A stretch of DNA of 64,000 bases from Candidatus Bathyarchaeia archaeon (lineage in GTDB: Archaea; Thermoproteota; Bathyarchaeia; Bathyarchaeales; Bathycorpusculaceae), in assembly GCA_049969855.1 (NCBI GenBank), contig JBMFOB010000003.1, forward strand, positions 1 through 64,000. The letters run 5' to 3'. The notes beneath the pieces were generated by a model. It ran no database searches. It saw nothing but the letters and a program-made list of their open reading frames with translations, and was not told the origin of the DNA. Both the position numbers and the translations under genes were made by a program. Positions 53,950 through 55,071 of this stretch are shown piece after piece. Every line of letters starts with the position of its first letter. The stretch's first letter is position 1.

Positions 53950-53963
53950 AAACTGCATAGCCT

Positions 53964-54467
53964 TTAACTCTGATTTTTTCTCAGCGTATCTTTCACTATG
54001 CCGCTTCGGCGTAAACTTTCTTCCAATGCAAAGCCTAAAATGTTTATTGCTACAATTGAACCGACGAAGATGCCAAACACTCCAAGTTCAACTGGAACGT
54101 CAAATATCAGCCATAGATAGCCACCAACAATCCCTGTTATAACCAGCGTTTCGACAAAACTTCCCAGAAACCTACGCACAAAATCTCCTCTGCCAACATA
54201 CCACGCCAAAGTACATGCCAAGAAGTTTGCAACAGTCCCCCCAACAACGTCGATAATGCCTAATCCTCCGTAAACATTTGCGACCAAACAGCCCAAACCG
54301 AATCCAATAGCGCTTGGCAACCCAAACATCATTGATAATGGCAGTAATGCATCAGCCACTCTTACTTGATAAATTCCAAAACTTATAGGCGCCAGAAGAA
54401 TCACACCAACTGCATAGAGTGCAGCAAAAATCGCTGCCAAAGTCAAATTTTTAGCGTCAAATTTCAC
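53964..54467 (-). CDS. queT: QueT family 7-deazaguanine precursor transporter (ECF S component)
   Basis: AAIFAALY; PISFGIYQVRVADAL; GCLVAN; GIIDVVGG; GTG start 6 nt downstream of GGAGGT. Confidence 0.88.
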   Translation of the reverse strand: MKFDAKNLTLAAIFAALYAVGVILLAPISFGIYQVRVADALLPLSMMFGLPSAIGFGLGCLVANVYGGLGIIDVVGGTVANFLACTLAWYVGRGDFVRRFLGSFVETLVITGIVGGYLWLIFDVPVELGVFGIFVGSIVAINILGFALEESLRRSGIVKDTLRKNQS

Positions 54468-54471
54468 ATTT

Positions 54472-54532
54472 TCACCTCCTACACCGGGGTTTTTATGGCG
54501 GAACGGGTGGAGGTCCACTCACCCGCCACACT
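54472..54532 (-). ncRNA. Candidate cis-regulatory RNA (preQ0/preQ1 riboswitch-like) in the queT leader
   Basis: GC-rich stem UGGCGG/CCGCCA, internal anti-SD ACCUCC, then UAAAAAC tail and SD GGAGGU. Confidence 0.55.
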
Positions 54533-54594
54533 TCTATCCACAAATTCTTAGGCTATTAATTTTACTGAAACAACTAATCAGCCAAAACATTTAC

Positions 54595-55071
54595 TTACTG
54601 TTTCTTCGCCTCAGTTTCAGCTTGAACCTCCACAGATTCTGCGGCTTCTGGGGATATTTTCACTGTTACATCTTCAACTGGAATTCCCTCTTTATGTGAA
54701 AAGAGCAAATCCTGAGGTGGCGGAGGAACATTAAGTATCGTAGATAGAAGATACATGGCTGTAAACGCTGTTTGATAAATTCTTTGAAAGACATATGGCA
54801 CTTTTGTTTCTGGATCAACCTCCAACATTTTATTTATCTCAGCATCTTTACCGCTTAATGTTGCCGTTCCTTCAACCTCAAACTTTACAAGGCTTGGCTT
54901 AGTCGTCAAAAAAAGTTTAAAATCTAAAATAACCATCTGGCTTTTGCGTTCTCTTTCCTCCAATTTTGCTTTAACATCAAAATTTACACTCTCAGCTCCG
55001 CTCTTAACATCTAACCGAACACCTACAAGACTGGTTATTTCTACTTTAACCGAAGCATTTGGAACATACAA
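54595..55071 (-). CDS. Conserved archaeal hypothetical protein, possibly SecB-like fold
   Basis: Four predicted beta strands, then a helix and a VPPPP tail. Confidence 0.65.
   Translation of the reverse strand: MYVPNASVKVEITSLVGVRLDVKSGAESVNFDVKAKLEERERKSQMVILDFKLFLTTKPSLVKFEVEGTATLSGKDAEINKMLEVDPETKVPYVFQRIYQTAFTAMYLLSTILNVPPPPQDLLFSHKEGIPVEDVTVKISPEAAESVEVQAETEAKKQ

Follow-up and report, generated by a model that had tools for sequence, protein, structure and literature searches.

A covarying leader RNA upstream of queT in Bathyarchaeia: a candidate preQ0 riboswitch that may mask the Shine-Dalgarno sequence

Introduction

What is the role of the short GC-rich segment that precedes the queT gene of an uncultured archaeon of the class Bathyarchaeia? 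The DNA analyzed here, hereafter the window, is a stretch of 64,000 nucleotides (nt) corresponding to positions 1 to 64,000 of contig JBMFOB010000003.1 (assembly GCA_049969855.1, Candidatus Bathyarchaeia archaeon), and the segment lies on its minus strand, to which all leader coordinates below refer, immediately 5' of an open reading frame (ORF) for a QueT protein. An initial annotation of this locus, made from the sequence alone, regarded the segment as a translational OFF switch sensing preQ0 or a related deazaguanine, in which an anti-Shine-Dalgarno (anti-SD) element captures the Shine-Dalgarno (SD) sequence. The comparative data presented below make it close to certain that the motif is a conserved, structured cis-regulator of preQ0-related genes. 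By analogy with the bacterial preQ1 switches, we further consider it likely that the RNA is a direct sensor of a 7-deazaguanine, most probably preQ0, that it acts as a translational OFF switch, and that it represents a class absent from Rfam 15.

Architecture of the queT leader

The ORF that begins at the GTG codon 54465-54467 encodes a QueT protein of 167 amino acids (coding sequence, CDS, 53964-54467 with the stop codon; PF06177, 93.7 bits against a cut-off of 33.7, E = 1.6e-26, match over residues 8-152), and the codon aligned with this start in homologues is GTG, TTG or ATG. With the first G of GGCGG (54527) numbered G1, helix P1 is formed by G1 G2 C3 G4 G5 (GGCGG, 54523-54527) and C27 C28 G29 C30 C31 (CCGCC, 54497-54501), and helix P2 by G8 A9 G10 U11 G12 G13 (54515-54520) and C18 C19 A20 C21 C22 C23 (54505-54510). 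The two helices are separated by an internal loop with G6 U7 on the 5' side (54521-54522) and G24 U25 U26 on the 3' side (54502-54504), and P2 is closed by the apical loop A14 C15 C16 U17 (54514-54511). The anti-SD, ACCUCC (A14 to C19, 54509-54514), takes up the apical loop and continues into the upper part of P2's 3' strand. Downstream of P1 follow an A-rich linker, which ends in AAACCCCGG, and a conserved tail (together A32-G44, AUAAAAACCCCGG, 54484-54496, with the core AAA-N-CCC-GG), a spacer UGUA (54483-54480) and the SD GGAGGUG (54473-54479), located five bases 5' of the start codon.

All leader strings and coordinates quoted in the initial annotation were checked on the minus strand and, apart from a TATA-like string discussed below, they are correct: the outer stem UGGCGG (54528-54523)/CCGCCA (54501-54496) lies exactly where it had been placed, and ACCUCC (54514-54509) is the exact complement of GGAGGU (54479-54474). 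Likewise, its description of a GC-rich island in an AT-rich region agrees with a GC content of 0.50 over 54460-54549 against 0.32-0.37 just upstream, where an A/T-rich spacer separates the leader from the end of the preceding ORF (54595). Judged on this single sequence, the stability of the hairpin is only mildly unusual (RNAfold on the hairpin alone, -19.7 kcal/mol, z = -2.83, with 3 of 200 shuffles equally good).

Conservation and covariation of the nested helices

QueT was found in 54 of the 61 genomes searched (the window's own and 60 relatives), and in 27 of the 30 QueT loci listed the motif stands directly before the start codon; at loci L016 and L017 it lies farther upstream, before a QueT-like paralogue, queC and queT, and the remaining locus, L007, has another leader, described below. 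The 58-column core of the leader averages 88% identity to the window in 26 homologues, and the QueT proteins average 46%, with a minimum of 30%. It is conservation of this kind that places the motif, which recurs in hundreds of genomes, beyond chance.

A covariance model, R1, was built, and 184 of its 187 matches from the genome sets could be parsed, yielding 173 distinct instances. Since the parsing pattern fixes G2, G4, G6, U7, G24, U26, C28-C30 and, in the tail, AAA and CCC, the evidence for these positions is taken from the alignments A1 to A3 and not from the 173 instances. Within the latter, the P1 pair 5:27 shows no mismatch at all (158 G:C and 15 C:G), and the pair 1:31 is G:C in 121, A:U in 26, G.U in 10, U:A in 5, C:G in 3 and another combination in 8. 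The central P1 pairs 2:30 and 4:28 are constant, and 3:29 deviates only to U.G, in A2, A3 and the parsed set, twice in the last of these. In P2, the pair 11:20 is U:A in 132 instances, G:C in 21, C:G in 4 and U.G in 2, and the opposition 9:22 is an A.C mismatch in 130 of the 173 and G:C in 42, the mismatch being found one step lower, at 8:23, in 19 instances.

The nested structure composed of P1, P2 and U7.G24 is supported in two alignments. In A2 (94 rows) 91.5% of the cells are paired, against 34-51% when the 3' partners are slid, and 8 of the 12 pairs show changes on both sides; in A3 the corresponding values are 94.4% against 38-56%, with both-side changes in 6 of the 12 pairs. In neither alignment did any of 500 shuffles attain the observed covariation score, a control that is inflated by related sequences, a weakness from which the slid-partner control is free. 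Moreover, in a mutual-information search over all feature pairs, 1:31, 11:20 and 5:27 ranked highest, two neighboring linker columns aside. The conservation and covariation of the outer stem that had been predicted for orthologous leaders are thereby found, as are those of the anti-SD:SD helix described below.

The length of the P2 region ranges between 11 and 22 nt, and since its changes do not keep to multiples of three, the region is non-coding. In some genomes P2 is reduced to two or three pairs with an unchanged core, so that the apical part can be regarded as a variable module. Several other roles or folds of the segment were considered and rejected. A coding N-terminal extension of QueT from the GTG at 54518 is ruled out, P2 lengths differing by 1 or 2 nt among homologues; a terminator of the upstream gene is not compatible with the lack of a U-run after the hairpin; and the internal loop has no tandem G.A pairs, as a kink turn (K-turn) would. 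An extension of P1 by its flanks fails in that 42 of 94 and 29 of 88 cells lack pairing at the column pair 7:50 or 7:53. The alternative fold CGGGUG/CACCCG, proposed at the outset as one of two options, is at odds with the comparison of homologues: G5 would have to pair with C22, but it covaries with C27, and C22 is kept in all 15 instances with C5:G27. As a side observation, the longest ORF at this locus (53964-54518, 184 amino acids) starts at this same GTG 54518, inside P2 and in frame with queT, and gene calling by longest ORF would thus hide the RNA motif in a false N-terminal extension.

Pairing of the apical anti-SD with the ribosome binding site

The anti-SD:SD columns are paired in 93.3% and 93.8% of the cells in the two alignments, against 50-75% with slid partners, and a single register serves both CCUCC/GGAGG and CCUCCC/GGGAGG. 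Because this column signal is largely one register difference, an alignment-free test was added, in which the best contiguous duplex between the apical segment and its own ribosome binding site (RBS) averages 6.6 base pairs (bp). The score of this duplex, 17.07, compares with 15.67 (standard deviation 0.16, maximum 16.09) over 300 permutations of the partners. In addition, the base 5' of CCUCC covaries with the base 3' of GGAGG as A-U, G-C, G.U or U-A. The most telling cases for this helix are the leaders in which an unusual RBS is accompanied by a matching anti-RBS, namely CAUCUC/GAGAUG (L201, similarly L305), UUCCGAC/GUCGGAA (L116 and L118, similarly L065 and L292), GCCCCC/GGGGGC (L070), CCUUCC/GGAAGG (L102 and L091) and CCCUCU/AGAGGG (L086). 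P1, P2 and the anti-SD:SD helix thus all covary.

The anti-SD:SD helix requires C18 and C19, which also form the top of P2, and the two structures are consequently mutually exclusive. In the window the full hairpin amounts to -14.0 kcal/mol and opening its top two P2 pairs costs 6.5, and the anti-SD:SD duplex would return -8.7 to -11.4 kcal/mol, pseudoknot loop penalties not yet counted. On these calculated values, the two states are close enough in energy for a ligand to decide between them, as a switch requires.

Conserved unpaired core and tail

The unpaired positions of the core, G6 U7, C22, G24-U26 and the tail, vary little in the model alignments. In A1 the positions G6, U7, G24, U25, U26, AAA and CCCG are invariant, and the columns U7/G24 read U.G in 93 of 94 rows of A2 and in all 90 rows of A3. 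Two positions left free by the parsing pattern behave alike: C22 never changes in the 173 instances, even though its opposite is A9 in 130 of them, and U25 is U in 166. In the tail pattern A-N-AAA-N-CCC, the free position N is C in 127 instances, U in 25 and A in 21, and GG follows in 166 of the 173. A covarying structure in an mRNA leader combined with conserved unpaired core nucleotides, which is what is generally expected of a riboswitch, is therefore found here.

The single variable position of the tail shows no clear covariation, and none of the pairing partners tried for the tail or the core was supported. Pairing of the tail ACCC with G4-G6/U7 is not compatible with a tail that remains unchanged when G5 becomes C. 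The tail CCCC as a second anti-SD, suggested by the minimum free energy fold, in which ACCCC pairs with GG-A-GGU, is likewise unsupported; an RBS of GAGAUG or GUCGGAA leaves the tail unaltered, and it is the apical anti-SD that changes with the RBS. Pairing of C22 C23 G24 with C42 G43 G44 concerns invariant positions and is lost in 6 instances that have AA for GG, and pairing of G24 U25 U26 with A37 A38 N39 receives no compensation when U25 is C. We infer that the tail belongs to the ligand pocket.

Distribution and gene context

R1 gives a single strong match in the window's own genome, the queT leader itself (90 bits). In a sample of the class, matches were obtained in 102 of 151 genomes at E <= 0.1, 93 of them at E <= 2e-4, and in a sample of the phylum in 31 of 151 genomes at E <= 0.01, 17 of which belong to classes other than the window's, 15 of them with E <= 7e-8. 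A strict pattern scan of public species genomes retrieved at least 119 stretches, and R1 confirmed 75 of the 80 loci listed; among these matches, 63 are titled Bathyarchaeia or Bathyarchaeota and the other 12 bear different archaeal names (Methanomethylicota 2; Nitrososphaerota, Nitrososphaeria or Nitrosopumilales 6; Promethearchaeota 1; Hodarchaeota 1; plain archaeon 2). The 5 bacterial pattern loci among the 80 listed were not confirmed by R1 and fit the chance number estimated beforehand from the information content of the pattern. The same pattern retrieved at least 120 stretches from metagenomes, 76 of the 80 loci listed being confirmed by R1. Two Asgard-labeled genomes sit in a small class of 7 genomes, in all of which the motif precedes queT; in view of their sizes of 1.3-2.0 Mb, the labels of the submitters are taken with reserve. 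In the scans performed here, and among the matches listed, the motif was thus confirmed only in archaeal records.

The first gene downstream of the motif encodes a QueT homologue in 156 of the 173 instances, followed by queC in 45 of them. In 3 instances a radical-SAM protein comes first, two of these being followed by queC; the five best NCBIfam matches of these proteins are all QueE models, below their cut-offs. In 1 instance QueC comes first (PF06508, 212 bits), followed by queT, and in 6 a membrane protein of 229-277 amino acids, one of them followed by queC. Of the remainder, 4 are contig ends and 3 comprise two short QueT-family ORFs before queC and one apparently frameshifted queT. In the latter (L180:6659-7162), which follows a good copy of the motif (52 bits), queT is spread across two or more reading frames; either the gene carries a frameshift or the long-read metagenome-assembled genome contains an error at this point. 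Among the 76 confirmed metagenome instances, QueT comes first in 66, the membrane family in 5 and QueE-QueC in 1, with contig ends in 3 and QueT 284 nt downstream in 1. This association with the genes of one pathway, across several classes and in metagenomes, is likewise a general property of riboswitches, and with queE-queC, queC-queT and queT-queC operons behind the motif the link to 7-deazaguanine genes is stronger than initially claimed.

The membrane protein family (L058:1570-2265, L139:5327-6022, L182:863-1549, L194:4165-4866, L195:3856-4566 and L167:5727-6557) has no match in Pfam or NCBIfam. In a protein atlas it adjoins clusters named 'ECF transporter S component' (0.94), which is to be read as a lead only, and a relationship to QueT was rejected (hhalign probability 16%). 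The family is a candidate for a new 7-deazaguanine transporter component.

The genome of the window, which is 93% complete, encodes TgtA (573.8 bits against a cut-off of 350), an enzyme that in archaea inserts preQ0 directly into tRNA, according to PMC4770233. No convincing QueC was found in it (best score 28.6 bits, inside unrelated ORFs of 415-525 amino acids), nor were PTPS/QueD or QueE (best match 23.4 bits). With TgtA present and queC, queD and queE not found, preQ0 is required by the organism and, to judge from the assembly, has to be imported. The organism therefore probably salvages preQ0.

Comparison with known riboswitches

No match to the motif was obtained with cmscan against the 4227 families of Rfam 15, whether in window positions 54300-54700 (401 nt) at E <= 10, in the whole window at the gathering score, or, again at E <= 10, across the motif in 20 diverse representatives, the preQ1 models RF00522, RF01054 and RF02680 included. 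The motif is not a detectable member of preQ1-I, -II or -III, as the initial annotation had judged by eye, and the two computational checks proposed there, this one and the covariation analysis, both agree with its interpretation. In the full-text literature, a coverage that leaves out most subscription journals and supplements, neither an archaeal preQ0 or preQ1 riboswitch nor such a motif in Bathyarchaeia was encountered. Accordingly, we rate the RNA as a probable new riboswitch class, with some risk of a prior description beyond the literature covered.

In its working the RNA most resembles preQ1-II (RF01054, the COG4708/queT motif of Streptococcaceae and relatives) and preQ1-III, and its likeness to preQ1-I is slight. 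In PMC11625349, from which all statements on the preQ1 classes here are drawn, preQ1-II is described as a queT leader in which an anti-SD in a loop pairs with the 3' SD to form a pseudoknot, with control of translation only. The RNA of the window has the same topology, and its SD, too, enters a Watson-Crick pseudoknot helix of 5-7 bp. In contrast, preQ1-II places a P4 hairpin before the SD, where the window RNA has a 17-nt single strand between P1 and the SD; in preQ1-II the pocket has the SD as its floor, whereas the conserved core of the window RNA lies at the P1/P2 loop, several bp from the SD helix; and preQ1-II is limited to Bacillota, whereas the motif of the window is archaeal.

With preQ1-I (RF00522, types 1-3), the window RNA shares a G/C-rich P1 of 5 bp, an A-rich tail directly attached to it, the logic of an H-type pseudoknot and the control of queT or queCDEF-type genes (PMC11625349). 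The likeness to class I noted at the outset, a stem followed by an A-rich tail, is a resemblance only, and a defining feature of that class is lacking. Type 1 switches have UC, and types 2 and 3 AC, immediately before the 3' strand of P1, the C being the specificity cytosine (PMC11625349); here U25 U26 stand at that place, and C27 is the covarying Watson-Crick partner of G5. In addition, the loop of the window RNA holds an entire covarying helix, P2, giving a larger aptamer of about 55 nt, and its tail ends in CCC-GG; the end of the preQ1-I tail pairs with the loop, and for the tail of the window RNA no such partner could be shown. PreQ1-III (RF02680) shares the queT leader, an anti-SD in a distal loop that docks on the 3' SD and a pocket remote from the expression platform (PMC11625349). 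It is a five-helix RNA of about 100 nt that contains an HLout pseudoknot and was described from Ruminococcaceae and metagenomes, unlike the two stacked helices and single pseudoknot helix within about 55 nt found here. Archaea make use of a very small number of established riboswitch classes, mostly those for thiamine pyrophosphate (TPP) and fluoride, according to McCown et al. 2017 (PMC5473149); these are likewise cis-acting leaders of archaeal mRNAs, but they are shared with bacteria.

Proposed mechanism and alternative explanations

Based on the covarying helices, the gene context and the analogy with bacterial preQ1 switches, we hypothesize that the first ~65 nt of the queT mRNA (54531-54465) would constitute the riboswitch and that its ligand is most likely preQ0 (7-cyano-7-deazaguanine), which is the free archaeosine precursor, or a 7-deazaguanine very similar to it. 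Without ligand, the RNA would form a simple hairpin in which the top of P2 holds the anti-SD, leaving the SD free and queT translated. Upon binding, the A-rich/CCC linker would dock along P1 and the internal loop and build the pocket, the linker and the loop being proposed for this role because the geometry of an H-type pseudoknot would place the linker along the P1 minor groove and over the internal loop. Docking would lay the SD on the apical anti-SD, forming a pseudoknot helix of 5-7 bp at the cost of the top two P2 pairs, and with the RBS hidden the import of preQ0, or elsewhere its synthesis, would be shut down. In the organism of the window the switch would thus act as feedback on preQ0 salvage.

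Several points weigh against this interpretation. Ligand binding, the identity of the ligand and the OFF direction are drawn from gene context and from the bacterial analogy, and the pocket model is a guess, since the AAA-N-CCC-GG tail has no covarying partner in the mutual-information search and no demonstrable pairing partner. The three central P1 pairs, being constant, provide no covariation, and the 15 instances of C5:G27, in the sampled genomes, come from three related families and may represent a single event. The A.C mismatch of P2 is found at either 8:23 or 9:22, and about 23 of the 173 instances lack it, which argues against a rigid pocket at that site. As for the pseudoknot, much of its column covariation is the one register change between CCUCC/GGAGG and CCUCCC/GGGAGG, and part of the complementarity comes free, CCUCC being complementary to any canonical SD. 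Finally, 9 of the 102 class-level R1 matches are weak and probably noise.

A riboswitch of the same architecture could respond to a ligand other than preQ0, such as preQ1, 7-carboxy-7-deazaguanine, archaeosine base, queuine or guanine. The context of queT, queC and queE indicates the pathway and not a single intermediate, bacterial queT-linked switches sense preQ1, QueT being described as a preQ1 transporter in PMC11625349, and the occurrence of two very different QueT alleles behind identical leaders implies that the substrate could differ. Nevertheless, we regard another ligand as unlikely: TgtA uses preQ0 directly, so that free preQ1 is not expected in archaea (PMC4770233), control of queE-queC fits feedback by the end product, which is preQ0, and the window's genome encodes TgtA and was not found to encode the pathway that makes preQ0.

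Recognition by a protein, instead of a metabolite, has little probability in our view. No regulator gene accompanies the motif at the loci examined, where the neighbors are only que genes and transporters, and a same core extending over several classes and two labeled superphyla is typical of metabolite aptamers. The size of the RNA and the layout of its pseudoknot with the SD match known small riboswitches, and the tandem G.A pairs of a K-turn are missing. An operator bound or base-exchanged by, for instance, TgtA/ArcTGT, so as to stabilize or prevent the anti-SD:SD helix, would nonetheless account for the invariant unpaired nucleotides and the central P1 pairs, which suit a protein footprint equally well, and PMC4770233 mentions an mRNA as a substrate of a bacterial TGT and considers that non-tRNA RNAs may be targets of ArcTGTs.

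Very improbable is a constitutive or thermal damper of translation that masks the SD without a ligand in order to keep a membrane protein low. Anti-SD:SD pairing alone would reduce translation, and the two folds are near in energy, but such a damper leaves some 20 near-invariant nucleotides beyond the anti-SD and SD unexplained, does not fit the presence of the same core before the cytoplasmic queE and queC and before two unrelated transporter families, and runs counter to an apical anti-SD that varies freely while the core does not. That the RNA is a divergent preQ1-I, -II or -III with an inserted hairpin, missed by Rfam, is extremely improbable. Its 5-bp P1 followed directly by AUAAAAA recalls class I, its SD pseudoknot class II and its distal anti-SD class III (PMC11625349), yet none of the three models matches at E <= 10 in the window or the 20 representatives, UU replaces the class I specificity C, and neither a P4 nor the ~100-nt five-helix fold is present.

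The preQ0-sensing OFF switch thus remains the interpretation that we favor, and we lean, somewhat less firmly, toward a broader one: the RNA would be the first riboswitch class confined to archaea in the scanned collections and the fourth fold for precursors of queuosine or archaeosine, tuned to preQ0 and not to preQ1, widespread in Bathyarchaeia, present also in genomes labeled Methanomethylicota, Nitrososphaerota and Asgard, and controlling a regulon to which a second, so far unrecognized family of 7-deazaguanine transporters belongs. If this is true, an abundant class confined to archaea would change the picture of an archaeal repertoire reduced to few classes such as TPP and fluoride (PMC5473149) and would provide the first direct handle on nutrient regulation in uncultured Bathyarchaeia unable to make the nutrient. 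A fourth, independently evolved 7-deazaguanine fold would be useful for comparing RNA solutions to one recognition problem, archaeal QueT and the family resembling ECF transporter S components would acquire a function as preQ0-linked transporters, and preQ0 would be a metabolite traded in sediment and soil communities. Being small (~65 nt) and SD-based, the RNA is directly testable in vitro and probably in bacterial reporters.

Promoter, allele exchange and divergent copies

The TATA-like string that the initial annotation placed at 54562-54553 exists, but its coordinates were one base off, the string AAAATTAATA being found at 54563-54554. It belongs to a TATA-like box, AAAATTAATAG (54553-54563), preceded by an A-rich stretch resembling a B recognition element (BRE), both read from the sequence. 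When 172 leaders are superposed at the first P1 base, positions -40 to -36 are rich in A and positions -34 to -28 in T and A; TT[TA]A[TA]A occurs in 74 of these leaders, 58 occurrences beginning at -35 to -31, and the box of the window begins at -32. The usual archaeal distance between TATA box and transcription start would put the start 3-6 nt before P1, in the zone 54529-54533. The box is therefore a candidate promoter of the queT mRNA, and the RNA probably forms the 5' end of the transcript; the suggestion that transcription starts just before the stem fits this positional signal about 31 nt ahead of P1.

In three loci of the same genus (L027, L023 and L030), compared with the window at 53950-54466, the DNA on either side of queT, namely the 3' end of polB and the leader with its upstream genes, is 82-94% identical to that of the window, and the queT CDS itself cannot be aligned by blastn, the proteins being 35-38% identical. 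The breakpoint on the 5' side falls 11-65 nt into the CDS, beside the invariant leader, and the other is at the 3' end of the gene. This exchange looks like a precise cassette swap, and the near-invariant leader may serve as a recombination anchor for swaps of queT cassettes between relatives. Upstream of the leader, an ORF of 158 amino acids (54595-55071, minus strand) has no Pfam family; the acidic C-terminal end of its product is syntenic and conserved at many loci of relatives.

Some copies of the motif depart from the common pattern. The genome of locus L149 (G331) contains three strong ones, of 73.8, 66.6 and 48.5 bits (C22:66204-66276, C1:23734-23803 and C11:168931-169002), one of which precedes queE-queC. 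At L007 (genome G054), queT is 58% identical to that of the window and has a different, longer leader without an R1 match, which begins with a GGCGG...CCGCC hairpin followed by UUUACCCC, with CCUCC farther down, and may be a rearranged variant. At L003 and L026, and also at L042, L198 and L199, ACG stands at the position of the queT start codon behind a normal SD, and these leaders may use non-canonical initiation or a different start. A divergent subgroup (L068-L072 and L120; 23-33 bits), all of whose members precede queT, has AAAA in place of the GG after the CCC tail and a longer linker of the GACAU type, and three members carry C for U25; the subgroup as a whole can help to find dispensable contacts of the core.

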